Below are positions 1,974 through 40,723 of a stretch of DNA of 64,000 nucleotides, in pieces. Position 1 is the first letter of the stretch, and every line of letters begins with the position of its first letter. This DNA is from Patescibacteria group bacterium (GTDB taxonomy: Bacteria; Patescibacteriota; Microgenomatia; UBA8517), in the NCBI GenBank assembly GCA_041742135.1, contig JBGSJG010000004.1:45975-109974 (forward strand). Reading direction: 5' to 3'. A program made the translations under genes and the position numbers. The notes under the pieces are model-generated. The model was not told where the DNA came from. It searched no databases and was given only the letters and a program-made list of their open reading frames with translations.

Positions 1974-2933
1974 ATGGAGAAGGAAGAGTATTTTAAGGCG
2001 GAAATAATTGAGGAAGATGGAGCGCTCCGGCTACGGGCATTGGATGGTAGTCTTAGTAGCCAAGAATTTGAAGTAACGCTTCTAGATGTAGCTCAAGAGA
2101 AGCAGGGTTTTAATGTTGGAGAAAAAGTTGTGGTTTTGGCAACTGCAAATCCCGAAGGAACGCAGTTTACCATTGTCGATTATGTACGCCATGACGCGTT
2201 AACTCTCCTATTTGTCTTGTTTGTATTTGTGGCGGTAATAGTTGGGCGCAAGTGGGGAGTGGCCTCGCTTGTAGGCATGGCATTTTCTTTCTTGGTGATA
2301 TTCATGTTTATATTGCCAAGAATTATCGCCGGGGGGGATCCAGTTTTTAACACAATCTTGGGAGCATCGTTTATAGTCCCTGTCACTTTTTATATGTCGC
2401 ATGGTTTTTCGGACAAGACACATGTAGCGATATTTTCGACAATAATTACGCTTATAATTATAGGCGTGCTTGCGGCGTTTTTTATACAACTGGCGCACCT
2501 GACTGGCTATGCCGCTGAAGAGGCAATCTTTTTACAAAATTTGGGAGAGTTTAATATTCGAGGGATTTTACTGTCGGGAATTATTATTGGTTCTTTGGGA
2601 GTGCTGGACGATATAACGATTTCTCAGGCTAGTATAGTTTTGGAGCTTTACAGCTCTAACGCCAAAACATCAAAAGGCGACCTCTACAGGCGCGCGATGA
2701 ATGTGGGCCGCGACCATATTGCTTCGCTTGTTAACACTTTGGTTTTGGTTTACACCGGAGCTTCTTTGCCTTTACTACTTTTATTCACAGAGTCTGGAAG
2801 GAGCTTTTCCGACATTATTAATATTGAAATGGTTGCGGACGAAATCGTTAGAACGCTGGCTGGCAGCATTGGTCTAATTATTGCTGTTCCTTTGACAACT
2901 TTTATTGCAGTTTATGCATTAGCTAAAAAATAA
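1974..2933 (+). CDS. YibE/F-like integral membrane protein
   Basis: 319 aa. Soluble N-terminal segment followed by six or more hydrophobic helices. Confidence 0.45.
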   Translation: MEKEEYFKAEIIEEDGALRLRALDGSLSSQEFEVTLLDVAQEKQGFNVGEKVVVLATANPEGTQFTIVDYVRHDALTLLFVLFVFVAVIVGRKWGVASLVGMAFSFLVIFMFILPRIIAGGDPVFNTILGASFIVPVTFYMSHGFSDKTHVAIFSTIITLIIIGVLAAFFIQLAHLTGYAAEEAIFLQNLGEFNIRGILLSGIIIGSLGVLDDITISQASIVLELYSSNAKTSKGDLYRRAMNVGRDHIASLVNTLVLVYTGASLPLLLLFTESGRSFSDIINIEMVADEIVRTLAGSIGLIIAVPLTTFIAVYALAKK

Positions 2934-2962: not shown

Positions 2963-3805
2963 CTATTCGTCGTGCGAGAATTTGTTTAGCAATTCTTTGA
3001 GCATGTTTTCACTGTAATTCTCTCTTGTTATCTGAAATAACATTTTAAATGTTCCACCTCCAAATTGCTCGTCTGTTTGTGTCTCTAGGTTTTTCCAGTC
3101 ACCAGTTAATCTAGCTTCAATAATCAAGTCCATCCATGAAGGAATTTTGCACTCTATTAGTGAATGTAAACGGACAAAGTTGTCTGCAACCAAAGACATG
3201 CGAGTGCCTAAATCTGTAAAAATATATGAGACATAAGTTTTCGGTGACGGCAAAGACTTTTCTTCCAGTTCTTTTCTCAGGGCTGCCATTTTTTGTGTTT
3301 TTAAAATATAGTCATCTTTGAATAGTAATTTCGCTCGGTGTGTGACGTAGAATTCTTCTTCTTTACTTACAAACCCTTCTTCAAAGAAGTAGCCCTGATA
3401 GCTTCGGATTTCGTTGTTTTTGTTTTTCACCGGAATCGGAACAATCGACTTTAGGCAATAAAGATGATCTAGTTCATGGAAAAGCAATGAAACAATGTCT
3501 AGGTTTGACATTCCCGGTTCTACAAAGATGACCACTACTGCATTTAAAGTAAGAGCTAACGAATTTGAAAAATCACTGTCTTGCCTTCCGCCAGCGTTGA
3601 CATATGCAGCGCTAACGGTGGCATTGTGTTTGCTGGGTATTAAATAGATGCGAGGCTCTGATGATTTAAAATTGTATTTCTCAGCCCGCTTGGAAAAATA
3701 ATTAATTAAATAAGATCGCTCGCTTACTAAACTTGCCCCAACCTTTTTCTGTAGTTTTTTTAAAATAGATTCCATTAAATTTTTCCTATAATTTGTTTTT
3801 ACCAC
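2963..3805 (-). CDS. hypothetical protein with HExxH motif (putative zinc metallohydrolase)
   Basis: LLFHELDHLYC motif in mid-protein. Start overlaps the end of ung by 7 nt, suggesting translational coupling. Confidence 0.35.
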   Translation of the reverse strand: MVKTNYRKNLMESILKKLQKKVGASLVSERSYLINYFSKRAEKYNFKSSEPRIYLIPSKHNATVSAAYVNAGGRQDSDFSNSLALTLNAVVVIFVEPGMSNLDIVSLLFHELDHLYCLKSIVPIPVKNKNNEIRSYQGYFFEEGFVSKEEEFYVTHRAKLLFKDDYILKTQKMAALRKELEEKSLPSPKTYVSYIFTDLGTRMSLVADNFVRLHSLIECKIPSWMDLIIEARLTGDWKNLETQTDEQFGGGTFKMLFQITRENYSENMLKELLNKFSHDE

Positions 3806-4728: not shown

Positions 4729-5190
4729 ATGAAAGCCGCCGTATTTTTGGTGGTAGTTTTGCTTCTGGGTCTTGTCGGCTTTTTATTTTTATCAAAGTCT
4801 CGTGACAACACTCCTAAAATTACCGATGAAGCAGCCACTCAAACAGTAGAAGTCGAGAATAAAATTGAGGAAATATTTGGGAGAAATATTCCTGACGATG
4901 TAGAAAAGCTGTCCCTTACAGATTTGACCAACGAAAGCTTGTTGGCTATTGCGACAAGAAAAGAAGAATCGGGCAGTGTCGAATTCTCGGTTTTAGCTGA
5001 TTTGCCAGAAAACCAAGAATCATATGAGGTCTGGGCTGGCGCGAGTAGCCAAACTGCTCAGAAAATTGGGAGTTTGATATCGGCTAAAGCCGGGTACATT
5101 TTTGAAGAAAACTCTCTTGGAGCACTTTCTGATTTTGAGTATGTTGCAATTATGCGTTCTGGCCAGAAAATGCTTGAAGGGTCCTTTTAA
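4729..5190 (+). CDS. membrane-anchored hypothetical protein
   Basis: N-terminal TM helix (AAVFLVVVLLLGLVGFLFL) followed by an acidic soluble domain. Confidence 0.45.
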   Translation: MKAAVFLVVVLLLGLVGFLFLSKSRDNTPKITDEAATQTVEVENKIEEIFGRNIPDDVEKLSLTDLTNESLLAIATRKEESGSVEFSVLADLPENQESYEVWAGASSQTAQKIGSLISAKAGYIFEENSLGALSDFEYVAIMRSGQKMLEGSF

Positions 5191-5938: not shown

Positions 5939-6598
5939 ATGTTATTTGTTAATTTTAAAACTTACGAAGAAGCTTCAGGTTTTTTTGGACTGGAACTTCT
6001 CGAAAAACTTGGCGAAGCAGCTCGCGAGAACCAGACAAAAGTTGTTGCAGTTATGCAGGCTGCCGATATCCGAGAAGCTACGATTTCTTCTGGGCTTGAA
6101 ATCTGGGCTCAGCATGTTGATGCAGTAGACTATGGAGCTCACACTGGAGCAATTTTGCCCGAGGCTGTTTTGACAGACGGCGCGGCTGGCACATTTTTAA
6201 ATCACTCAGAGAATAAATATCAGGACCACAAAGCGCTTGAGGCTGTAGTTGAGCGCTGCCGAAAAATTGGGCTCAAGACTTTAGTTTTTGCAGCAGACAT
6301 TTCTGAGCTTAAAAAGATATTGGCTTTAAAGCCAGATTTTGTTTCTTACGAACCACCTGAGCTGGTTGGTAGTAAAACCACGTCAGTTGCCGAGGCTAAG
6401 CCGGAAGTAATTGCTGAAGCGGTTAAGCTTTCACACGAAGCTCGAATTCCTTTAATTGTGGGGGCAGGCATTAAATCTAAAAAAGATGTGGAAGTAAGTG
6501 TTAGTTTGGGAGCAGATGGGGTGGCGGTTGCAAGCGATATTGTTAAGGCCGAGGATCCTAAAAAAGAAACGATCGATCTTTTAGAGGGGTTTAAATAA
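5939..6598 (+). CDS. tpiA: triosephosphate isomerase, archaeal-type (short form)
   Basis: 219 aa. INFKTY-like N-terminus (MLFVNFKTYEE) and GAHTGAILPEAV...GTFLNHSENK align closely to Pyrococcus-type TIM rather than the bacterial NWKMN type. Confidence 0.85.
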   Translation: MLFVNFKTYEEASGFFGLELLEKLGEAARENQTKVVAVMQAADIREATISSGLEIWAQHVDAVDYGAHTGAILPEAVLTDGAAGTFLNHSENKYQDHKALEAVVERCRKIGLKTLVFAADISELKKILALKPDFVSYEPPELVGSKTTSVAEAKPEVIAEAVKLSHEARIPLIVGAGIKSKKDVEVSVSLGADGVAVASDIVKAEDPKKETIDLLEGFK

Positions 6599-7035: not shown

Positions 7036-8051
7036 TGAAAGTTCAAACTTTTGAGGAGATCGATCTTACTGGCAAGAGAGTTTTAGTGAGAGCTGACTTG
7101 GATGTTCCGTTTGAAGGCACAGAGGTCCGCGATGATTCTAGAATCGTAAACTGCACTCCCACCTTTAAGCGAATTTTGGAAAAAGGAGCAGCCCAGCTTT
7201 TAATTTTGGGGCATATTGGCAAATACGAAGGAGAGGAAAAAACCGTGTCGACTGAGTTTTTAGTTCCAACTTTGGAAAAATTACTTGGGGAGAGTGTGAA
7301 GTTTGTATCCGGAATGCCTCCAACGGGAGAGCTGGCGGGCAGAATAATCTTATTAGATAACGTCCGAAAAGACCCCAGAGAAGAACAAAATAGCGATGAG
7401 TTTTCGAAGGGAATTGCACGACTTGCCGACACTTATGTTAACGAAGCTTTTGCTACTTCTCACAGAGAGCACTCTTCAATTGTTGGCATTTCAAAATTTC
7501 TACCTAAGTACGCTGGGATTCGTTTCGCGCGTGAAGTGGAAACACTCTCGGAGATTTTGGAAAATCCAAAAAAGCCAGTTGTGGCGCTAATTAGTGGAAT
7601 TAAGAGAGATAAATTAACTTATATAAATAATTTTTTGGGCTTTTCCGATCGCATTTTAGTTGCAGGGAGGCTTCCTGAGTACATTGAGGACAACGATCCT
7701 CTGAGAAGTAACTCGAAGGTGGTTGTTGCTCGATTGATTCCAGACAAGGAGGATATAACAATTCATGCGATCGAGGCATTCGAACAGGAAATTGACCGTG
7801 CGGAAACTGTGATTGTCGCTGGAGTTTTGGGCAAATATGAAGAAGAGGGTCACAGGCAGGGGACGAAGCGCGTGTTTGAAAAAGTGGCAAATTCTAGCGC
7901 ATATAAACTTATGGGCGGAGGAGACTCTGAAGCCGCCGCATCGCTTTTTGGCATAACTGACAAATTTGACTGGATTAGTACGGGTGGAGGCGCCATGCTT
8001 GAGTTTTTGGCAAAAGGAACTTTACCTGGGATTGAAGCATTGATACACTGA
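7035..8051 (+). CDS. pgk: phosphoglycerate kinase (short, 338 aa)
   Basis: GKRVLVRADLDVP N-terminus. GGGDSEAAA...GGGAMLEFL C-terminal motifs. ATGA overlap with rpiB. Confidence 0.85.
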   Translation: MKVQTFEEIDLTGKRVLVRADLDVPFEGTEVRDDSRIVNCTPTFKRILEKGAAQLLILGHIGKYEGEEKTVSTEFLVPTLEKLLGESVKFVSGMPPTGELAGRIILLDNVRKDPREEQNSDEFSKGIARLADTYVNEAFATSHREHSSIVGISKFLPKYAGIRFAREVETLSEILENPKKPVVALISGIKRDKLTYINNFLGFSDRILVAGRLPEYIEDNDPLRSNSKVVVARLIPDKEDITIHAIEAFEQEIDRAETVIVAGVLGKYEEEGHRQGTKRVFEKVANSSAYKLMGGGDSEAAASLFGITDKFDWISTGGGAMLEFLAKGTLPGIEALIH

Positions 8052-9831: not shown

Positions 9832-10683
9832 ATGGAAAAGCTCTCGCTTGAAGATTTGGAGAAAAAAGCAGTTGAAGTAAGAAAAGACATAATAAAAATG
9901 CTTCTGGCCGCAGAAAGTGGCCACTCAGCAGGCCCCTTGGGAATGGCAGATATTTTTACCGCCATGTACTTTAACGTAATGAACCATAATCCCGAGGATC
10001 CCAACTGGGAGGATCGAGACAGGCTGTTTTTGTCCGCAGGCCACATTGTTCCGGTTCGATATGTCACAATGGCCCACGCCGGATATTTTCCAAAAGTCTG
10101 GTTAAAAAAACTTAGAAAACTGGGCTCACCTTTGCAGGGACACCCAGAGCGCACTAAGCTTCCCGGACTTGAGTCCACCTCTGGCCCCTTGGGCGAGGGC
10201 TTAGCGCAAGCCGCGGGTTATGCTTATGCCGCGCGAATGGACAATAAACGCTTCCGAGTGTTTTGTGTTTGTAGTGATGGAGAGCATGATGCAGGCAACC
10301 ATTGGGAGGCTGTTTTATTTGCCGGCAAATACAGGCTTTCAAATTTAACTGTCTTTGTTGATCGAAATAATATTCAAATAGACGGACACACCGAAGACAT
10401 CATGCCTCTGGAGCCTTTGGCTGCCAAATACGAGGCTTTCAATTGGCATGTTTTACATATTGATGGCCACAATATAGAAGAGATAATTGACGCAGTAAAC
10501 CATGCTCGGGCGGTTTACGAAAAGCCAACTGTGATTATTGCCCACACTATTCCCGGTAAAGGGGTAAGTTTTATGGAAGGAATGTATGAATGGCACGGCA
10601 AGCCACCTAATGAAGAGGAAGCCAAAAAGGCACTACATGAGTTGAGATCTTTGGGTGGCAAAATTCACGGCGAGCATGAGTGA
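9832..10683 (+). CDS. transketolase, N-terminal (TPP-binding) subunit
   Basis: GHSAGPLGMADI...SAGH motif. 283 aa, so a split-type transketolase. Confidence 0.85.
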   Translation: MEKLSLEDLEKKAVEVRKDIIKMLLAAESGHSAGPLGMADIFTAMYFNVMNHNPEDPNWEDRDRLFLSAGHIVPVRYVTMAHAGYFPKVWLKKLRKLGSPLQGHPERTKLPGLESTSGPLGEGLAQAAGYAYAARMDNKRFRVFCVCSDGEHDAGNHWEAVLFAGKYRLSNLTVFVDRNNIQIDGHTEDIMPLEPLAAKYEAFNWHVLHIDGHNIEEIIDAVNHARAVYEKPTVIIAHTIPGKGVSFMEGMYEWHGKPPNEEEAKKALHELRSLGGKIHGEHE

Positions 10684-34151: not shown

Positions 34152-34496
34152 ATGACAATTGCAGAATCCCAGCCTCCCATCGATGCGTCTGTTGTTGAAA
34201 TTCCGGATCAGCCAGAAATTCCATCCAATATTGAAACTGCAACCGGGGTAACGAGCGTTCCCACGACACCTGCTCCAATTCAAGGACCTGCTGACCAGCC
34301 AGTCGTGCAATCAGTGCCCGCCCCCGCACAAAATACGCCACAGGTAAAAATTCCAGCGGTTGATGAGAAACAACTTGAGGAATATTCTCGCGGCAACAAG
34401 ACCGACGCGAAGACTTGGTTTGGAGTTTTTTGGATCCGAAAAATTAAGCAGGCAATAGGTGGCGGGCTTTCAGTAATTTTTGGGAAAACACAATGA
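34152..34496 (+). CDS. proline-rich small protein, translationally coupled to the downstream ATPase
   Basis: P/Q/V-rich. C-terminal amphipathic WFGVFWIRKIKQAIGG. ATGA overlap with the next gene. Confidence 0.4.
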   Translation: MTIAESQPPIDASVVEIPDQPEIPSNIETATGVTSVPTTPAPIQGPADQPVVQSVPAPAQNTPQVKIPAVDEKQLEEYSRGNKTDAKTWFGVFWIRKIKQAIGGGLSVIFGKTQ

Positions 34497-36823
34497 ATGT
34501 GCTTACTAGCTTACTAACAACAATTTTTTTGGGGTTGTTCGCGTTTATGTTCTTTTTTTTGTTTTTTCTGGCAATTCTTTGGTACGTAATCGAGCGTGTG
34601 CGGGCGAATGATCGTGAAGAAAAATCACTAGAATCAATTTTGCTTGAGGTTACGGTTCCTCGGGGGAATGAAATAAAAGTTGACGCTATGGAGCAGCTTA
34701 TTTCTTCGTTTGCTTCGATTAAGAAAAGCGGCTGGAAAATGCGCTTTAAGAGCCAGCCCACAATTTCGTTTGAAATACTTGGCAGAAACGAAGACATCAG
34801 GTTTTTCATCTGGGTACCTAAAGACCTTCGTGATTTTATCGAAAAACAAATTAACGGAGCTTACTCGGATGCTCATGTAATTGAAGTCCCCGAATACGAA
34901 ATTTTTACTGAGGAGGGCAAGGTTGCTTATAAAGCTTTTGAGCTTCGTAAAGAAAATTATTTTCCAATTAAAACATTCAAGGAGTTGCCAACTGATGCTC
35001 TGGCGACAATTACTTCGGCAATAGGGAAGATGAGTAAAGGTGAAGCAGCGGCTGTACAAATTCTTGTGTCTCCTACGCAGTCAGAGTGGCAAAAGGAAGG
35101 CCGAGCTTTTATCTCAAACACTAAAAAGCAGGAGTCAGACCCCACAAAGGCCAAGTTTTCTGTTTCTGCAAAAACTCTGGAAGCTGTAGAAAACAAAGTA
35201 AGTAAACCCGGTTTTGCAGTGGCTATTAGGATTGTAGTGGTATCTGAATCGGAGACGACGGCCAATGTTCATCTAAGTAATATCGCCAGCTCCTTTGCTC
35301 AGTATTCTAGCGATGTAAACAGTTTTACTTCCAAGAAAATCAAAAACAAAGGAGCTTTTGTCGAAAACTTCATTTACCGTTACATGCCTTCTGGCATTTT
35401 TGACAGAAGTGTTTCAATTTTAAATTCTGAAGAAATTGCTACGGTGTTTCATTTTCCAAACAAACTTGTTGCCACTCCGCACATTAAATGGCTCAATGCA
35501 AAAACTGCTCCGGCCCCAGCAGAGATTCCTCAAGAGGGCTTATTTATGGGCTATTCCACATATCGAGGTCTCAAGCGACCGGTTTACATTTCTGAAGTTG
35601 ATCGCCAGAGACACACATACATCATCGGAAAAACCGGTACTGGTAAATCTAAATTTTTGCAAAGCCAGATCTTACAAGACATTGAAGCAGGCCGCGGGCT
35701 TTGCTTTATGGATCCACACGGTGACGCTGTGGAGGAGCTTTTGGGCATGATTCCGCCTGAGCGTGCGGAGGATGTGATTTATTTTAGGCCAAGCGATTCG
35801 CTTCGCCCGATGGGCTTGAATTTACTTGAAGCCAAAACTGAAGATCAAAAGCATTTCGTGGCAACATCGGTTATTAACATGATGTACAAGCTTTTTGATC
35901 CATATAAAACTGGAATTGTGGGGCCGAGATTTGAACATGCTGTGAGAAACGCCATTTTGACTGTCTTGGCGGATGAAGGTGCTACGTTTGTGGAGGTTAT
36001 GCGTGTTTTGACGGATGCTAATTATGTTCGCGAATTACTGCCTAAAGTTGATGACCCGATTGTTCGCAGATACTGGACAGATCAGATTGCCCAAACCTCT
36101 GACTTTCATAAATCCGAAGTTTTGGACTACATAACCTCTAAGTTCGGGCGTTTTGTTACCAATAAAATGATCAGAAACATTATTGGTCAGTCTCAATCAT
36201 CGTTTAACTTTCGCGAGGTGATGGATCAAGGAAAAATTTTGTTTATTAATTTGTCTAAGGGTGAGCTTGGGGAGGAGAACTCTAACTTTTTGGGCTTGGT
36301 CATTGTGCCAAGAATCTTAATGGCTGCCATGAGCCGCTCTGATATTCCTGAAGAACAGCGTCGTGATTTTTATCTTTATGTCGACGAGTTTCAGAATTTT
36401 GCCACGCCAGATTTTGCCCAGATACTTTCAGAAGCCAGAAAATATCACTTAAGTTTGACTGTGGCAAATCAGTTTATTGGCCAAATTGACGATGAGATTA
36501 AAAACGCAATATTTGGTAACGTAGGTACGCTCATCACGTACCGCGTAGGTGTGAGCGATGCGCAATATCTGGCGCACGAATTTACACCGACTTTTGGTGA
36601 GGATGACCTTCTTAATATCGAAAAATACAACGTCTACATGAAGACGATTGTCCAAAATGAGCCAGTTCCGCCATTTTCTATGGCTGTGCCGGGAGACATC
36701 ATGGATAAGCTTAAAAACAGAAATCTCAAGCTTGCCGAGGCCTTAAAGGAAATGAGCCGGCTCAAATTTGGTCGAGACGTACGGCTTGTGGAACAAGAGA
36801 TTACGAGACGTGCCAAGTTGTAA
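34493..36823 (+). CDS. VirD4/TrwB/TraG-like type IV coupling-protein family ATPase
   Basis: Two N-terminal TM helices. Walker A IIGKTGTGKSKF, then CFMDPHGD. C-terminal YVDEFQNF...RKYHLSLTVANQ (TraG-D_C-like). Confidence 0.65.
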   Translation: MNVLTSLLTTIFLGLFAFMFFFLFFLAILWYVIERVRANDREEKSLESILLEVTVPRGNEIKVDAMEQLISSFASIKKSGWKMRFKSQPTISFEILGRNEDIRFFIWVPKDLRDFIEKQINGAYSDAHVIEVPEYEIFTEEGKVAYKAFELRKENYFPIKTFKELPTDALATITSAIGKMSKGEAAAVQILVSPTQSEWQKEGRAFISNTKKQESDPTKAKFSVSAKTLEAVENKVSKPGFAVAIRIVVVSESETTANVHLSNIASSFAQYSSDVNSFTSKKIKNKGAFVENFIYRYMPSGIFDRSVSILNSEEIATVFHFPNKLVATPHIKWLNAKTAPAPAEIPQEGLFMGYSTYRGLKRPVYISEVDRQRHTYIIGKTGTGKSKFLQSQILQDIEAGRGLCFMDPHGDAVEELLGMIPPERAEDVIYFRPSDSLRPMGLNLLEAKTEDQKHFVATSVINMMYKLFDPYKTGIVGPRFEHAVRNAILTVLADEGATFVEVMRVLTDANYVRELLPKVDDPIVRRYWTDQIAQTSDFHKSEVLDYITSKFGRFVTNKMIRNIIGQSQSSFNFREVMDQGKILFINLSKGELGEENSNFLGLVIVPRILMAAMSRSDIPEEQRRDFYLYVDEFQNFATPDFAQILSEARKYHLSLTVANQFIGQIDDEIKNAIFGNVGTLITYRVGVSDAQYLAHEFTPTFGEDDLLNIEKYNVYMKTIVQNEPVPPFSMAVPGDIMDKLKNRNLKLAEALKEMSRLKFGRDVRLVEQEITRRAKL

Positions 36824-36831
36824 GCTTCATT

Positions 36832-36840
36832 TGGTATAAT
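36832..36840 (+). promoter_or_regulatory. extended -10 TGgTATAAT upstream of the tRNA cluster
   Basis: Perfect TATAAT with TG at -14/-15, about 10 nt before the first tRNA-like sequence. Confidence 0.45.
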
Positions 36841-36850
36841 ATCCTCACTT

Positions 36851-36887
36851 GGGCCATTCGTTCATCGGCTAGGACGGGATTCTTATA
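36851..36887 (+). pseudogene. 5' half of a split tRNA gene (tRNA#2), ending in anticodon loop CTTATA
   Basis: GGGCCAT acceptor strand and D-arm. Pairs with the 3' half at 36994-37033. Confidence 0.6.
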
Positions 36888-36998
36888 GCGCAAAAATGGG
36901 CCTGTCGTTCAATGGTAGGACACCATTCTTATAAAGTGGACACGAAGGTTCGATTCCTTCCAGGCCCACATTTTTGCGATATATCGTGATGCGTTATA
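36883..36998 (+). mobile_element. 106-nt insertion in the anticodon loop of tRNA#2, carrying an intact tRNA gene
   Basis: Flanked by 10-nt inverted repeats CGCAAAAATG (36889-36898) and CATTTTTGCG (36969-36978), and by a duplicated TTATA (36883-87 and 36994-98). Confidence 0.4.
36898..36968 (+). tRNA. tRNA, anticodon UAU (Ile-type, AUA-reading) by manual cloverleaf; no encoded CCA
   Basis: Acceptor GGGCCTG/CAGGCCC. D-stem GTTC/GGAC. Anticodon stem CCATT/AGTGG, loop CTTATAA. T-arm GAAGG-TTCGATT-CCTTC. 71 nt. Confidence 0.6.
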
Positions 36999-37033
36999 AA
37001 GTCCAAAGGATGGTTCGACTCCATCATGGCCCA
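36994..37033 (+). pseudogene. 3' half of split tRNA#2
   Basis: TTATAA-AGTCC...GATGG-TTCGACT-CCATC-ATGGCCC-A. Anticodon stem and acceptor are perfectly complementary to the 5' half at 36851-36887. Confidence 0.6.
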
Positions 37034-37103
37034 CAAGTAGGACGGATTTTTGTGACAACGAAGATTCGAAAATTTTGCGAAGCAAAAGAGTCAAGCTTTG
37101 CTT

Positions 37104-37121
37104 ATTCCTTCCAGGCCCACA
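37104..37121 (+). repeat. 18-nt direct repeat identical to the 3' end of the tRNA (ATTCCTTCCAGGCCCACA)
   Basis: Exact match to 36953-36970. Att-core-like, about 210 nt from the end of the integrase gene. Confidence 0.6.
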
Positions 37122-37124
37122 CTA

Positions 37125-37340
37125 ATGACAAAAGACGAAAAGAAAAAATACGACACTCTGGTAGAGGAACACAAGAAAGTTGCCGAGAAGTTAGAGTTTC
37201 TTCACAGAGGATTTCGGGGAGTGAGCCACGAAAATTCTGCTGCTGAGATGCGCTACACTACAATTCAGGTGTACGAAGCCCATCTTAAAAGTATCGAGGA
37301 AGCCATGAAACTACTGATTGCTGATGAGAAAAGCTTATAA
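37125..37340 (+). CDS. small charged hypothetical protein
   Basis: 71-aa ORF (MTKDEKKKYD...) between the tRNA-end repeat and the integrase. Confidence 0.3.
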   Translation: MTKDEKKKYDTLVEEHKKVAEKLEFLHRGFRGVSHENSAAEMRYTTIQVYEAHLKSIEEAMKLLIADEKSL

Positions 37341-38204
37341 CTCTTCTAGCCTTGGCGAGTGGCCACTTTCTTTTACGTTGGCAATTTGAAGATAGCGCTC
37401 TGTGGTTGATAGTCTTCTATGTCCTGCCGCTTGAGAAATAGTTACAAGGTCAACACCTCTTTTAATGTTTTCAATCAAAAAAGTGTTGCGAAGGTCGTTG
37501 ACCGAAAACTCAGAAAGCTCTGCTCTTTGAAGATATCTGTCAATTAAGGCTCGAATATTTCTTATTGCTAGTGGGTTGCCCGTTTTACTGACGAATAAAT
37601 AAGGAGAAGTAGCATCGCTTCGCTCGCGAAGATAATCCTCAATTGCGGCTCTGGCGGTTTTATTTAGAGGAATTCTGCGCTCTGGTTGAGTAGCATATGC
37701 GTCGATAACCACTTCATCCCTTTTAACATCAGACACTTTTAAGTTTGCAACTTCCGATATTCGCATGCCAGTCTGAAGAATTAGTTCAATCATTGCAGCG
37801 ACTTTACGGTCATATTTTGCTGTATCACGAAGCGATCGGTACTCAATGGGGGACAAATATCCGGGCTCTGGGGCGTTAATTTCTGGGTGGCTTACTTCGC
37901 GCGACGGATCTTCCTCGATGTAGCCTTCATCTTTTACCCAACGGAAAAAAGTTTTCACCGCGTTAAGTTTTCGCGATGTCGATTTTGGGGTATATTTATG
38001 AGACAAAAGATGATCACGAAAACCCTCCAAGTCTCGCAAGGTTATGTTTCTCGGGTCGACAACGCTCTTGTGGCTCAAGTATTCAGTTAGCTGTTCCAAA
38101 TCGGAGCCATAAGCTAGAATGGTGGAAGGGGAGCGCTTTTTGTCTGTAAGTTCTTGAATAAATCTTGGCACAAGGTCGCCTAAAGTGACGCTAAATTGGT
38201 TCAT
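37335..38204 (-). CDS. tyrosine site-specific recombinase (phage-integrase/XerCD family)
   Basis: N-terminal SAM-like core-binding domain (TILAYGSDLEQLTEYL). C-terminal R...HRRLSTTERYLQ catalytic signature. Confidence 0.8.
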   Translation of the reverse strand: MNQFSVTLGDLVPRFIQELTDKKRSPSTILAYGSDLEQLTEYLSHKSVVDPRNITLRDLEGFRDHLLSHKYTPKSTSRKLNAVKTFFRWVKDEGYIEEDPSREVSHPEINAPEPGYLSPIEYRSLRDTAKYDRKVAAMIELILQTGMRISEVANLKVSDVKRDEVVIDAYATQPERRIPLNKTARAAIEDYLRERSDATSPYLFVSKTGNPLAIRNIRALIDRYLQRAELSEFSVNDLRNTFLIENIKRGVDLVTISQAAGHRRLSTTERYLQIANVKESGHSPRLEEL

Positions 38205-38306
38205 TTTAAATTACTATATACATTTGATGATACCATATTACTATTCGCAGTCAACATTATGGGACAGAAATATTCTTGTAGTAAATTACTATAAACAATA
38301 AATACC

Positions 38307-38666
38307 ATGAAAAAATTTTCATCGGCGGTACTGATTTTTGTATCATTTTTATTGATATTGTCCTTCGCCAGAGGTGTTTTTAGGCTTATCTCATCAAGAG
38401 ATAAAATTGACAAAGCACGGGAGCGACTTTCACAACTACAGGTAGAAAAAGAACAGCTGACTACCAAGCTCAAAGAAATAAACTCGGATACTTTTAAAGA
38501 GGTTCAGTTGAGGGACAATCTTGGCTTGGCAAGGGAAGAGGAGACTGTGGTGGTCCTTCCGAGCGAAGATGTTCTTCGCAAGCTTTCACCCAGAATTCAA
38601 AAGGAACAACTACAAAAAGAAGATAAGCCCATTTGGCAAAAATGGGTTGATTTATTTACTGAATAG
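38307..38666 (+). CDS. septum formation initiator family protein (FtsB/DivIC-like)
   Basis: TM plus coiled coil plus LRDNLGLAREEETVVVLPSE, similar to the FtsB C-terminal motif. Confidence 0.55.
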   Translation: MKKFSSAVLIFVSFLLILSFARGVFRLISSRDKIDKARERLSQLQVEKEQLTTKLKEINSDTFKEVQLRDNLGLAREEETVVVLPSEDVLRKLSPRIQKEQLQKEDKPIWQKWVDLFTE

Positions 38667-38710
38667 TCCTTCGACTGCCTGCCTGTGCAGGCGGGCGCTC
38701 AGGACGACTC
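38667..38710 (+). repeat. 44-nt GC-rich palindrome-containing repeat, copy B, followed by further GC-rich hairpins to about 38750
   Basis: Starts 1 nt after the FtsB-like stop. GGCCGGG-AGTCGCG-CCCGGCC hairpin downstream. Confidence 0.8.
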
Positions 38711-38844
38711 CGTCGTCGGTTGCGGGGCCGGGAGTCGCGCCCGGCCTAGGAGATTATGAGCCTCCTGTGCAACTCTACACTACCCCGCATATCACCCTCA
38801 ATTGTTTTCAAGGGTGTCCTATTATACCTCGAAGTGTAAAGATG

Positions 38845-38904
38845 GCAAAACAAGTTTGAGTTTGGAAGCTCAAAAAGGTAAAATTGACTCACGTCAGGGT
38901 AGCT
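38845..38904 (+). repeat. 60-nt perfect direct repeat, copy A (tRNA-Met promoter plus first 12 nt of the tRNA)
   Basis: Identical to 40574-40633. Followed here by a non-foldable tRNA-like tail, not a tRNA. Confidence 0.9.
38879..38884 (+). promoter_or_regulatory. -10 box TAAAAT inside repeat copy A (duplicated tRNA promoter now facing the lipoprotein gene)
   Basis: Same element at 40608-40613 sits about 9 nt upstream of the tRNA-Met 5' end. Confidence 0.35.
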
Positions 38905-38970
38905 AACTCCGAAGAGATAGGGGCTCATAATCACTAGGTTGGAGTTCGATCCTTTCCCTTGATACAAAAC

Positions 38971-40464
38971 ATGACCGACACCGAAGAGCCAACAGTAGCT
39001 AATAACACGATAAGTAGGCGAACTTTTCTTAAAATGGCGGTTGCTACTGGCGCAGGATTGTTGGCTTCTTGTGTTCCAGGTTCCACTGAACCCAGCACTT
39101 CAACTCCGACTCCAGAACCTTCTCGGACACCAACTATTGCACCTCCAACTCACGAGCCGACGCCAACAGAAACTCCTGACCCGATTGAGCGTTATAACGA
39201 GTTAAAAGAAATGGACGTCACTGAATTGGATTTGGACGAAGCTCTGAATATCGTAAATGAATCGTATAGAGCAATTACGGCCAGAGATAGAACGCAGATT
39301 GCGTTTGACGAGGACTCTTTTGCTTTTGACAGAAGTGTGCCGGCAATAGACGAGAGAAGAAGAGAACGAGTTCGTGGCCAAAAGCAGACTTTGCAGTATC
39401 TTAAAAATGCAATGTTTGCTTTGGATGAAATTAGAAAAGAGGCCGATGCTGAGCAATATATTTATTCCACGCGCCATCAGAGAATCGTACTGGTGAATGA
39501 TCAAGGAATGGAAACCGGTGCAGGGAGGACATCTTTCAGCGTTAATCAGCCATACGAAGACGTTCAGATTCGTTTTAACGAGAGAATGGATCAAGAGGTT
39601 GCGGCAAACGAGCTGGTTCCGGCCATGCTTTGGCCAGGGCAGATTCCTCAGGGGGAGCCACCCTCTTATAATGCTGATGAATGGGACCTGTTATCCAGTT
39701 TTCTTCATGTCGCGATTGCGGAGAAACTGGGTATTGATAACCAGTTTGAAAGAGTTGCTCAAAATCAGTTCGGAGTTGTTTTTCCAGAAGGACAAGATTT
39801 AAGAAGCACTGGTGAATTTTACGGCTTGCAAACGGTTGGACTCTCGCAAGAAAACAGAAACGCCCTGTCCTATTTTAACGAAGCGTACCATTTAGTTATA
39901 TTTAATCGGATGCGGGCAGCGGGAATTGAAGCCACAGATATATTAAAAGCACTCGATGAAATTTGGATGGCCGATCGGAGCTATTGGATAGATAGTGGGC
40001 AATTTGAGCAAACAAGACAAGACCTTTCGCAAGCGAGTATTTATGAAAGAGATTTTGAAGGAAGTAGTGATAAGCCGTTCTCAACTGTATTCGCGATCCA
40101 AGTTTGGGGGGAAAATGGTATTCGACTCATATCGACTCGGCGCAATAACGTTGAAGTTACTTTAGGTGTTGATCCGAGTAACCCTCGTGAAGCTGGGCTT
40201 TATTGGCCTCAAAACGACTATTTTAGAGTTGAGAGGGGAGATGGTGAAATTCTTTATGAGGGTGGTGGCTATCAAGAATTGCCTCAAAGTACAGATAATG
40301 AGTTGAACTTTGTTCGACTACAAGAAATACCTAACGTGTCTCCGGGAGAAAAATTGAAAATCATTCATCGAGAGGCACGATTCAATCCAGAAAATGGTGC
40401 TTTTGAGGATGTTTCTGAGGGAGACAAAGAGTATGAAGTATTGGCACCTCGGTGGATTAATTAA
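38971..40464 (+). CDS. Tat-signal lipoprotein, hypothetical
   Basis: SRRTFLKMAVATGAGLLASC (twin-arginine plus lipobox). T/P-rich linker. ATG at 38971 preferred over the TTG at 38959. Confidence 0.5.
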   Translation: MTDTEEPTVANNTISRRTFLKMAVATGAGLLASCVPGSTEPSTSTPTPEPSRTPTIAPPTHEPTPTETPDPIERYNELKEMDVTELDLDEALNIVNESYRAITARDRTQIAFDEDSFAFDRSVPAIDERRRERVRGQKQTLQYLKNAMFALDEIRKEADAEQYIYSTRHQRIVLVNDQGMETGAGRTSFSVNQPYEDVQIRFNERMDQEVAANELVPAMLWPGQIPQGEPPSYNADEWDLLSSFLHVAIAEKLGIDNQFERVAQNQFGVVFPEGQDLRSTGEFYGLQTVGLSQENRNALSYFNEAYHLVIFNRMRAAGIEATDILKALDEIWMADRSYWIDSGQFEQTRQDLSQASIYERDFEGSSDKPFSTVFAIQVWGENGIRLISTRRNNVEVTLGVDPSNPREAGLYWPQNDYFRVERGDGEILYEGGGYQELPQSTDNELNFVRLQEIPNVSPGEKLKIIHREARFNPENGAFEDVSEGDKEYEVLAPRWIN

Positions 40465-40573
40465 TTTCACGAACTGAAAGGGTCGCAAAATTATTTTTGT
40501 CCTATCGAGAAGAGTTTGTTTCGGAGTATGGAATGCTTGTCGAATGCGCCATACGCCTCTTAGTTCAAATTAC

Positions 40574-40633
40574 GCAAAACAAGTTTGAGTTTGGAAGCTC
40601 AAAAAGGTAAAATTGACTCACGTCAGGGTAGCT
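40574..40633 (+). repeat. 60-nt perfect direct repeat, copy B (native promoter and 5' end of tRNA-Met)
   Basis: See copy A. Confidence 0.9.
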
Positions 40634-40695
40634 CAGCTGGTTAGAGCACAGCATTCATAACGCTGCGGTCGTGGGTTCGAATCCCACCCCTGACA
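40623..40695 (+). tRNA. tRNA-Met (anticodon CAU; could alternatively be a lysidine-type Ile2)
   Basis: GTCAGGG/CCCTGAC acceptor. GCTC-AGCTGGTTA-GAGC D-arm. Loop TTCATAA. GTGGG-TTCGAAT-CCCAC T-arm. Confidence 0.8.
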
Positions 40696-40723
40696 CTTTA
40701 TTTTTTCCGTTTACGGTATAAAA

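Follow-up and report, generated by a model that had tools for sequence, protein, structure and literature searches.

The window analysed here, by which we mean the whole stretch of 64,000 nucleotides (nt) taken from a contig of a Patescibacteria group bacterium (JBGSJG010000004.1), carries a complete isoleucine tRNA gene, tRNA-Ile(UAU), within the anticodon loop of a second tRNA-Ile(UAU) gene, the two halves of which lie to either side of it on the same strand. An insertion at the DNA level has very probably produced this arrangement, leaving a split pseudogene around a working gene, and the locus as a whole is likely, though less firmly so, to hold three generations of one and the same gene. 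That a dedicated mobile-cassette mechanism stands behind nests of this kind is a more tentative proposal, to which we give a little less than an even chance. The intact inner gene (36898..36968, plus strand) has been called by ARAGORN as tRNA-Ile(tat) at 36898-36969 and matches the Rfam tRNA family RF00005 with 65 bits (E = 7e-14); CCA is not encoded. The outer gene is present as a 5' half of nucleotides 1-35 that ends in CTTA (36851..36885, plus strand, GGGCCATTCGTTCATCGGCTAGGACGGGATTCTTA; nhmmer profile positions 1-37) and a 3' half of nucleotides 36-73 (36997..37033, plus strand, TAAAGTCCAAAGGATGGTTCGACTCCATCATGGCCCA; profile positions 32-73), both of which have been recovered independently by an nhmmer profile of tRNA-Ile(UAU), with E-values of 1e-3 and 2e-4. 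Between them, separating anticodon nucleotides 35 and 36, lies a promoterless cassette of 111 nt (36886..36996, plus strand) composed of a 5' flank (TAGCGCAAAAAT), the inner tRNA and a 3' flank (CATTTTTGCGATATATCGTGATGCGTTA). The inner tRNA and the outer halves are 76% identical.

When 36851-36885 and 36997-37033 are joined in silico, ARAGORN reports a perfect tRNA-Ile(tat) cloverleaf, and a cut placed anywhere within the TTATA repeat (e.g., 36851-36887 + 36999-37033) leads to the same perfect tRNA-Ile(tat) call. A sequence-only reading that preceded this work had proposed both the intact tRNA and a second one reassembled from two outer pieces, with stems pairing as GGGCCAT/ATGGCCC, GGATT/AGTCC and GATGG/CCATC, and in these points it has been borne out. 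The insert it placed between the halves also stands, with its size corrected from 106 nt to 111 nt when counted without the target duplication. TTATA is indeed found on both sides (36883-36887 and 36994-36998); taken as a general target-site duplication it has failed, as it is absent at three related nests (L158, L163 and L014, introduced below). In intron mode (0-300 nt) on 36800-37150, ARAGORN has returned the inner tRNA only and has left the split gene uncalled. The 10-nt inverted repeat noticed earlier around the inner gene is exact (CGCAAAAATG at 36889-36898, CATTTTTGCG at 36969-36978) and extends to 15 nt at 93% complementarity, with a left arm at 36884..36898 (TATAGCGCAAAAATG) and a right arm, delivered by the repeat search, at 36969..36983 (CATTTTTGCGATATA); we refer to this pairing as the clamp helix. 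The minimum-free-energy fold of 36851-37034 shows a second pairing, in which the 3' end of the insert plus TAA (36990..36999, TGCGTTATAA) is joined to 36883-36892 (TTATAGCGCA), adding 10 pairs to the outer anticodon stem as an alternative to the clamp helix. The cassette starts with TAGCGCAAAAATG… and ends with …GATGCGTTA, and the outer-gene sequences that abut it are …GGATTCTTA before and TAAAGTCC… after. No RNA family besides tRNA has been detected by Rfam within the insert, and no match to Intron_gpI has appeared at the gathering threshold or at E <= 1. A comparison of window positions 36000-39000 with 50,697 phage records has given no similarity match, and exact look-ups of the neighbouring recombinase, the VirD4-like protein and P0001 have returned either nothing or one 1.6-kb Logan contig that ends before the tRNA.

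The state of the locus before the insertion can be read from a relative. Loci of ultra-small bacteria of the Candidate Phyla Radiation (CPR), labelled here with L-numbers, have been fetched by using as anchor the VirD4-like gene that precedes the nest, and a protein search with this gene has yielded closer relatives at 80-88% identity, whose contigs have been compared with the window. In one of them, L181, whose VirD4-like protein is 85% identical to that of the window, an uninterrupted tRNA (GGGCCCTTCGTTCAGCGGTTAGGACGGGACTCTTATAAAGTCCAGATGATGGTTCGATTCCATCAGGGCCCA) is found at the same spot, so that the empty site which the sequence-only reading had suggested looking for does exist. This tRNA is identical to the spliced outer tRNA at 64/72 positions and to the inner tRNA at 55/72, and the eight differences from the outer tRNA have been judged by reading to lie in loops, to be compensatory or to keep a wobble pair. 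It sits behind the same promoter block, CTTCATTT(T)G.TATAAT, and the same small open reading frame (ORF; MTKDEK...) begins three bases after it. In a piecewise alignment (a global one with MAFFT has misplaced the gaps), removal of 36886-36996 and 37036-37121 is enough to make the window colinear with L181 over the whole stretch between VirD4-like gene and small ORF. This colinearity speaks for an insertion into an outer tRNA that was intact before.

The window is by no means alone in this architecture. In an automated screen, 14 out of 99 tRNA-Ile(UAU) genes have turned out to have half-gene fragments on their own strand no more than 250 nt away. Among these fragments the 5' pieces stop at profile positions 34-38 and most of the 3' pieces begin at 32-35; more nested loci are visible by eye than the 14 of the screen. 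Complete nests have been recognised by reading in the window, L014, L101, L146, L158, L163, L149 and L051, and a further one (L026) is cut by the end of its contig. Two stacked 5' halves stand ahead of one intact gene in L038, a 5' half only has been seen in L099, L109 and L019, and an inner-type gene with a cassette flank and an outer 3' piece occurs in L182 and L040. Plain 3' remnants are present in L029, L042, L105, L154, L165 and L179, where these 3'-only fragments lie downstream of a different tRNA type. L105 also contains (6050-6360) a three-layer nest of tRNA-Met(CAU), in which the outermost gene is broken in the D loop, the middle one reads TTCA/.../TAA (a slash marks the break here and in the following junctions) and is valid after in-silico splicing according to ARAGORN, and the innermost is intact; the flanks of this nest (TGACACAAATTT ... 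GATGTCA) resemble the tRNA-Ile cassette of L101. Since the same architecture recurs with different sequences in independent NCBI, JGI, ENA and Logan assemblies, an assembly artefact has been excluded. Two contigs, L183 (4871-4907) and L026 (8496), end inside or just past the anticodon loop of the tRNA-Ile locus, which may reflect filled and empty alleles of different strains that break the assembly graph.

The position of the break is constant. All readable junctions are compatible with CTTA/insert/TAA, or TCA/insert/TAA in tRNA-Met, and CTTA/.../TAA itself has been seen in L014, L158, L163, L101, L146, L026 and L038; the break falls between anticodon nucleotides 35 and 36, which is the centre of the palindrome TTA/TAA. 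Wherever the junction is unambiguous, A35 is the last nucleotide of the 5' exon; all inserts that have been read are co-oriented with their host gene, and no nest has been found to hold element genes between the outer halves. The inner tRNA starts 10-24 nt past the break (~60 nt in L051). The apparent duplication, on the other hand, amounts to 5 nt in the window, 4 nt in L026, 2 nt in L101 and 0 nt in L158, L163 and L014, and because the other nests show 0, 2 or 4 nt, the TTATA of the window is not a general target-site duplication. The junctions of L158 read CTTA/CCCG...CAGG/TAA, and L158, L163 and L014 share no core beyond the split loop.

Similar regularities are found within the inserts. 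Across the nests a clamp helix of 8-16 pairs joins the two flanks of the inner tRNA, with arms CGCAAAAATG/CATTTTTGCG in the window, CAAAAATCT/AGATTTTTG in L101, GTGAAAATTTT/GAAATTTTCAC in L014, CAGTCAAAATTT/AAATTTTGATTG in L163 and CAAACAAAATT/AATTTTGTTTG in L149. A flanking helix of at least 9 pairs occurs in ~7% of shuffled controls and in every nested case listed by the test. The arms of L163 and L149 differ by compensating substitutions, and their inner tRNAs are ~89% identical, differing mainly in the acceptor stem; as the arms vary in this compensating manner, it is the pairing that is conserved and not the sequence. A second small hairpin in the 3' flank is usual, and the extreme ends are often complementary and prolong the outer anticodon stem, as in the window (TTATAGCGCA/TGCGTTATAA) and L101 (TTATGACAAA/TTTGTCATAA). 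By reading, the cassettes end in TAGCGC.../...GCGTTA, TGAC.../...GTCA or CCCGCC.../...GGCAGG, and in the window, L101, L182 and the tRNA-Met nest of L105 these ends mimic the target (TYA/TR). Flank families follow the host clades: ...AAATTTTG(A/T)TTGGGTGTATT is found in L149, L163, L040 and L154, ...CAAGATGTATTCTTGCGAATA in L026 and L051, and TGAC...GTCA or TAGCGC...GCGTTA in L101, L182, the tRNA-Met nest of L105 and the window. Related flanks have been seen around different outer tRNA types (L149 vs L163), in tRNA-Met (L105) and in tRNA-less inserts, all of them in tRNA genes of one syntenic region. Mini-hairpins of the type d(GCGAAGC) have been considered as a hallmark of the inserts and dropped, being not clearly enriched near tRNAs (11 observed, 6.9 expected).

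The relative age of the two copies has been approached through L158. Its outer tRNA shares the clade-specific T loop ATCGTCA with the un-nested relatives L012, L017 and L028, and the nearest genes to its inner tRNA belong to hosts that are more distant. Judged by this resemblance, the outer copy appears to be the resident and the inner copy the incoming one. Spliced outer tRNAs have been accepted by ARAGORN for the window, L014, L101, L146, L158 and the tRNA-Met nest of L105; that of L163 is mis-called, with three stem mismatches, and that of L149 is rejected. The outer copy of L051 has acquired extra inserts in the D arm and the variable region, and the 3' halves are missing from L038, L099 and L109. 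In every nested case the inner gene is intact, and the range of outer copies from perfect to ruined is the look of pseudogenes of different ages. A fast turnover of the gene has also been observed between genomes. Where the C-terminus of the VirD4-like protein is at least 85% identical, the median identity of tRNA-Ile is 73%, and tRNA-Met genes of the same type in both genomes, which serve as a rough control, are mostly 85-99% identical. The tRNA of L185 is a mosaic, with the acceptor stem of the window's inner tRNA on the core of its outer tRNA, and nearly the same tRNA stands in three flank contexts in L051, L024 and L153. As a separate observation, tRNA-Ile(UAU) with its own promoter occurs, among close relatives, in either orientation immediately after the stop codon of the VirD4-like gene, the same tRNA type lying at 2707-2780 (plus strand) in L179 and at 4834-4907 (minus strand) in L186, with further examples in L185, L121, L130 and L151; the promoter-plus-tRNA module seems to be often re-inserted or inverted.

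A third and oldest copy of tRNA-Ile, designated Z, follows the nest (37037..37121, plus strand; from the repeat families); it is truncated at its 5' side in the D arm and decayed. It opens with a piece of D arm and anticodon stem (GTAGGACGGATT, 37037-37048), followed by an insert, a deletion and an 18-nt 3' end (37104-37121) identical to the 3' end of the inner tRNA. The exact 18-nt repeat described before (ATTCCTTCCAGGCCCACA, 36953-36970 and 37104-37121) is thus present, and it is understood as the tail of an older gene copy, because the block 37036-37121 is laid out like that of L223. In L223 a working tRNA is directly followed by a second copy of the same type without its first ~20 nt, and this dead copy holds a 38-nt two-hairpin insert at CTTA/TGAC...GTCA/TAA. 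In the window, the anticodon position of copy Z would correspondingly be occupied by a 41-nt tRNA-less hairpin element with TGAC...GTCA ends (37053..37093, plus strand) and the hairpins CGAA-GA-TTCG and TTTTGC-GAA-GCAAAA. The TGAC...GTCA ends of the L223 insert are those of the tRNA-bearing cassettes in L101 and the tRNA-Met nest of L105, and by comparison its first hairpin takes the place of clamp helix and tRNA in these cassettes. After L223 had been compared, 37058-37069 in the window, which had been assigned to a T-arm remnant, was parsed instead as the first hairpin of the insert in copy Z. The hairpin TTTGCGAAGCAAA is found as an exact 13-mer only in the insert of copy Z and in a cassette flank of L051, and a remnant in L105 holds a tRNA-less insert of comparable kind; when 1.5 Mb of related loci were searched by regular expression for further inserts with TGAC...GTCA ends, the known cases and chance-level matches were all that appeared. 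L181 lacks the block 37036-37121, which in the window is flanked by an 8-nt direct repeat, GGCCCACA, and a one-sided replacement or an old event of attachment-site (att) type could have placed the block there; in this limited sense the earlier idea of att scars, which does not hold for the nest itself, may still apply to the 18-nt repeat. L223 further shows, on the strand that is minus in the tRNA sense (4836-4900), a single example of a 28-29-nt hairpin insert in the T loop of its dead copy (TTCA/A.../ATTCC), which may follow the fourth loop nucleotide as the anticodon-loop inserts do.

Taken together, these observations suggest the following course of events. A resident tRNA-Ile(UAU) gene would have been split at the DNA level by a promoterless 111-nt cassette, inserted at 35/36 in the same orientation, the cargo of which is a complete tRNA-Ile(UAU); because the cassette carries a complete gene, the cell would keep its tRNA-Ile(UAU) function. 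Transcription would be driven by the resident -10 element (36832-36840) and would reach the cassette by way of the dead 5' half, which would serve as a transcribed leader. This putative extended -10 element (TGGTATAAT, 36832..36840, plus strand), read from the sequence 11 nt 5' of the outer tRNA, is the sole visible promoter for the whole nest, so the transcript would start with the dead 5' half; a matching block of CTTCATTTGGTATAAT / CTTCATTTTGCTATAAT precedes the tRNA in L179, L005 and L181. A strict two-hexamer sigma-70 scan has called no promoter anywhere in the finding region, and the sole 'terminator' called there is the D arm of the outer tRNA, a second called site lying upstream of that tRNA. 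In the transcript the clamp helix would plausibly hold the inner cloverleaf apart from the homologous outer halves and so prevent mispairing, and RNase P together with 3'-end processing enzymes would release the inner tRNA, which would be the sole functional copy. The outer halves would then be a split pseudogene destined to decay, and copy Z a still older truncated copy with a tRNA-less hairpin insert at the anticodon position. The cassettes would form families of small hairpin-ended inserts that recur at this locus in Microgenomates, with the host tRNA interrupted at 35/36 every time. Cargo-less inserts have been seen only in dead copies, and cargo-bearing inserts only in the cognate gene; such a pattern is the expected residue of selection if cells do not survive the interruption of a live single-copy tRNA gene unless a substitute comes with it.

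Concerning the activity behind the inserts, the constant bond, the variable duplication, the target-mimicking ends and the conserved shape point to a structure-dependent cut-and-join reaction on hairpin DNA or to a homing-type repair, and argue against a DDE transposase or a classical integrase; the inserts may thus be mobilised by a dedicated activity of the structure-dependent kind. One may go further and postulate that the hairpin cassettes of Microgenomates, with 40-130 nt, constitute a new class of minimal mobile element, a suggestion that we hold at somewhat less than even odds. Such elements may be inserted by a structure-specific cut-and-join, probably of single-stranded DNA, after the fourth nucleotide of the 7-nt anticodon loop; those carrying a cognate tRNA may overwrite an essential single-copy tRNA gene in situ, with repeated insertion building Russian-doll nests and driving a fast turnover of tRNA-Ile(UAU) and sometimes tRNA-Met. 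That the outer gene is still expressed via a new kind of bacterial tRNA splicing is much less likely. Several points weigh against the main account of a cassette insertion. Neither an inserting enzyme nor a free or circular cassette has been found, and limited scans of viral contigs have given chance matches only: a generic nested-tRNA pattern has matched once, by chance and in a coding region, and the flank motif of family 3 has matched 36 times, about the number estimated for chance from the size of the collection, in no case beside a tRNA. The cassette families track the host clades, so that a homologous exchange of whole alleles could spread a few old nests without dedicated mobility. Six of the ~9 complete nests keep flawless outer cloverleaves, which fits frequent recent insertion and also selection on the outer gene. 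The nearest sampled genome has a protein identity of 88%, and presence or absence of the cassette is not comparable within one species; copy Z, moreover, is decayed and has been parsed by eye together with the tRNA-less insert that it holds.

Among the alternatives, one dispenses with a dedicated element altogether, and we regard it as unlikely while giving it more weight than the others. The nests would then be what ordinary recombination leaves behind in CPR cells that import DNA naturally, one or a few ancient nests being shuffled among relatives by swapping of whole intergenic alleles via homology in the VirD4-like and Xer/small-ORF regions, by one-sided, homology-facilitated illegitimate recombination and by short gene-conversion tracts within the tRNA. 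The clade-bound flank families, the mosaic tRNAs (L185, and L163/L149 with their difference mainly in the acceptor stem) and the near-same tRNA in the three flank contexts of L051, L024 and L153 all fit such exchange, and the 3'-only fragments beside other tRNA types as well as the GGCCCACA-bounded block would be the residue of one-sided replacement. It leaves, however, the first formation of a nest unexplained, as well as the fact that both junctions are always at 35/36 despite unrelated flanks, and this also in tRNA-Met. In old nests the outer halves should have decayed, yet those of most complete nests are without a flaw; two outer tRNA types of one clade (L149, L163) host related cassettes, and tRNA-less inserts share the same ends at the same position. 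The interpretation as scars of an integrase deserves little credence by comparison. According to it, tRNA-Ile has served as the attachment site of an integrative element whose body has since been deleted, with attL/attR remnants left by the neighbouring recombinase. Direct repeats of tRNA 3' ends are a classic mark of integration, and the window offers an exact 18-nt repeat of this kind, TTATA on both sides of the insert and, as the sequence-only reading had pointed out, a tyrosine recombinase gene 214 nt from the 18-nt repeat (37335..38204, minus strand). The protein encoded there (289 amino acids (aa); Pfam Phage_integrase + SAM_1) is Xer-like, its best NCBIfam matches being XerD/XerA/XerC, below their cut-offs; the gene is syntenic, being found within 1.5 kb of tRNA-Ile(UAU) in 57 out of 92 related loci, including the empty site of L181, and the long loci L014, L038 and L099, which are nested, lack it. 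As it is present at the empty site and missing from some nests, it is to be seen as a resident neighbour and not as evidence for an integrated element, a possibility that had been raised before. Furthermore, L158, L163 and L014 have no junction core in common, and in none of the nests do the halves enclose element genes. An integrative element restores the host tRNA with a partial copy and is not known to leave a whole gene inside a split host, whereas here the host tRNA stays split around a complete separate gene; that a dozen independent, near-complete deletions of the element body should each have left ~100 nt is implausible.

An intron-like arrangement, in which the 111 nt are removed from the primary transcript and both tRNAs are made, had been raised as well, and we rate it lower still. 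The ends of the insert pair and prolong the anticodon stem, the flank helix evolves by compensating changes in the manner of an RNA structure, most complete nests have flawless outer cloverleaves, and the position 35/36 is also used by the self-splicing group I introns of Patescibacteria (PMC13011429). Against splicing it counts that no intron or ribozyme family has been detected by Rfam and that ~40 non-tRNA nt are too few for a group I core; that the 5' exon ends in A35 and not in the U required for the U.G pair of a group I P1; that in the fold of 36851-37034 both junctions are spanned by a continuous helix of 10 pairs and no bulge-helix-bulge is seen; and that, by reading, the junctions of L158 cannot form two 3-nt bulges 4 pairs apart. 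Protein-dependent tRNA splicing is not known in bacteria. The outer genes are often decayed, truncated or half missing, many having lost one half, the inner tRNA being always intact; L038 has stacked 5' halves without 3' halves; and as the anticodons are identical, the product of the outer gene would be redundant. Hardly credible, finally, is a miniature inverted-repeat transposable element (MITE) moved by a DDE transposase, with the 10-nt repeats as its ends and TTATA as a 5-bp target-site duplication. The inverted repeats and the two-sided TTATA do exist in the window, yet the right repeat arm stops 15 nt short of the right boundary, the duplication measures 5, 4, 2 or 0 nt across nests, the arm sequences change between nests by compensating substitutions that keep the pairing, and the further copies of the termini that such a transposon would suggest have been found nowhere else in the 64-kb window. 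An insertion at the DNA level that has left a split pseudogene around a working gene is the explanation that we prefer.

The genes around the locus are cellular and comprise ribonucleotide reductase, a class I (Trp/Tyr-type) tRNA synthetase, FtsH and the VirD4-like ATPase, and the nearest genomes are Woesebacteria-like Microgenomates of the CPR. The conserved left neighbour is a gene for a VirD4/TrwB-like coupling protein of 776 aa (34493..36823, plus strand; Pfam TrwB_AAD_bind + TraG-D_C, with NCBIfam VirD4-like matches below cut-off), and tRNA-Ile(UAU) stands directly 3' of it in most Microgenomates loci. To the right follows a small conserved ORF of 71 aa without a family match (37125..37340, plus strand), whose orthologs directly follow the tRNA in L002, L005, L180, L181, L184 and L186. 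For the recombinase beyond it, a dif site at this locus has been considered but has found no support: GC skew is monotonic across the window, and two complete genomes have the locus 11-20% of the way along their deposited sequence. The unusual GTTC/GGAC D-arm type of the tRNA-Ile genes in the window (TCGTTCA...TAGGAC) has also been met in phage tRNA arrays (IMG/VR, L082-L097), where it is never nested.

Some further observations concern tRNA-Met genes. At 38824-38965 and 40551-40696 the window holds a degenerate copy of promoter plus tRNA-Met(CAU) and its intact counterpart, which are identical over ~60 nt (the leader and the first 23 tRNA nt) and decayed over the rest, and between the tRNA-Met pseudogene and the intact gene lies an ORF of 501 aa with a twin-arginine translocation (TAT) signal (38959-40464); the pair looks like another scar of replacement or duplication, with its junction in the D loop. 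An initiator-like tRNA-Met at 38718-38789 (minus strand) has been called by ARAGORN and stays below the Rfam gathering score; its unusual D arm, GTAGTGTAGAGTTGCAC, is conserved in relatives. In L013 (~7045-7150, minus strand), L032 (~10400-10520, plus strand) and L136 (~3096-3200, minus strand), 3' halves of tRNA-CAU that ARAGORN does not call follow AAGATATAGTCC...G/CATAA, and by eye the AAGATATAGTCC stretches would be the conserved 3' core of a group I intron ahead of the anticodon. In L003 (10150-10290) a perfect 10-nt inverted repeat, GCCAGCAAGT / ACTTGCTGGT, surrounds an un-nested tRNA-Met at distances of 11 and 27 nt, and could be a cassette without outer halves or a processing stem.

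Full-text searches of the literature on nested or split bacterial tRNA genes, on tRNA-in-tRNA insertions and on the tRNA-Ile of CPR bacteria have turned up only the work on group I introns and unrelated papers, in line with the remark of the sequence-only reading that it knew of no bacterial example. As far as these searches go, no bacterium has been described in which a whole tRNA gene lies in the anticodon loop of the gene that it succeeds; here this arrangement recurs and is layered. Nesting would offer a route by which an essential single-copy tRNA gene is replaced without the gene ever being lost, and may explain the ~27% difference in tRNA-Ile(UAU) between genomes whose neighbouring protein is 85-97% identical. 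It also matters for annotation, in that gene finders miss the split copies, an apparent single gene can be a stack of generations, and contigs sometimes break here. If truly mobile, the cassettes would be among the smallest cargo-carrying elements known and would point to a structure-specific recombination activity in CPR bacteria.

The cassettes share some features with several known systems and differ from them in others. With integrative elements such as phages, islands and integrative and conjugative elements (ICEs) they have in common the site-specific targeting of tRNA genes, often in the symmetric anticodon stem-loop, the carriage of sequence that preserves the tRNA, and the fragment scars; they differ in that a whole tRNA is nested and the host split, that the ~100 nt hold neither an integrase nor other genes, and that there is no constant core. 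Group I introns have been described at 35/36 in genes of Patescibacteria for tRNA-Asn and for tRNA-Asp (Nakagawa et al. 2026, PMC13011429), which agrees with the present case in the phylum, in the anticodon-loop position and in an interrupted gene that standard tRNA finders miss. Here, in contrast, there is no ribozyme, 71 of the 111 nt are tRNA, the 5' exon ends in A and the outer genes decay, and the hosts are tRNA-Ile(UAU) and tRNA-Met(CAU) genes instead of those for tRNA-Asn and tRNA-Asp. Archaeal tRNA introns can accommodate further small RNAs and are believed to pass from one tRNA gene to another (PMC4090602), and the bulge-helix-bulge introns as well as the split and tri-split tRNAs of Archaea (PMC4090602) likewise show an interruption of the anticodon loop with complementary sequences beside the break that keep the halves together; the present host is a bacterium, no bulge-helix-bulge is predicted, the break lies at 35/36 and not at 37/38, and the interrupted tRNA encloses a further copy of itself.

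The resemblance to small palindromic elements and to integron cassettes concerns the insert itself. Like the cassettes of integrons, those described here are promoterless, stand in a single orientation behind a resident promoter, have hairpins conserved in shape and record layered successive insertions. Unlike in integrons, new ones nest inside the previous ones, no attC core of the R'/R'' type (GTTRRRY) is seen by reading, and the recombinase lacks a convincing IntI match, the models of integron integrases giving 48.9 and 24.6 bits with cut-offs of 265 and 435. MITEs, repetitive extragenic palindromic sequences and bacterial interspersed mosaic elements (REP/BIME), Rickettsia palindromic elements and Correia elements comprise tens to ~150 nt, form hairpins, are non-coding, fall into families with shared ends and are found inside genes, and the insert of the window is correspondingly a short, non-coding, hairpin-forming sequence that is absent from the empty site of L181. 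It differs from them in its target, the centre of a 7-nt tRNA hairpin loop, in having no constant duplication, in that some of the inserts carry a complete cognate tRNA in the first hairpin, and in that no multi-copy spread has been seen in the sequence examined. We class the cassette with the small palindromic insertion elements, or with those tRNA-targeting insertions that bring compensation along, in either case as a new variant.

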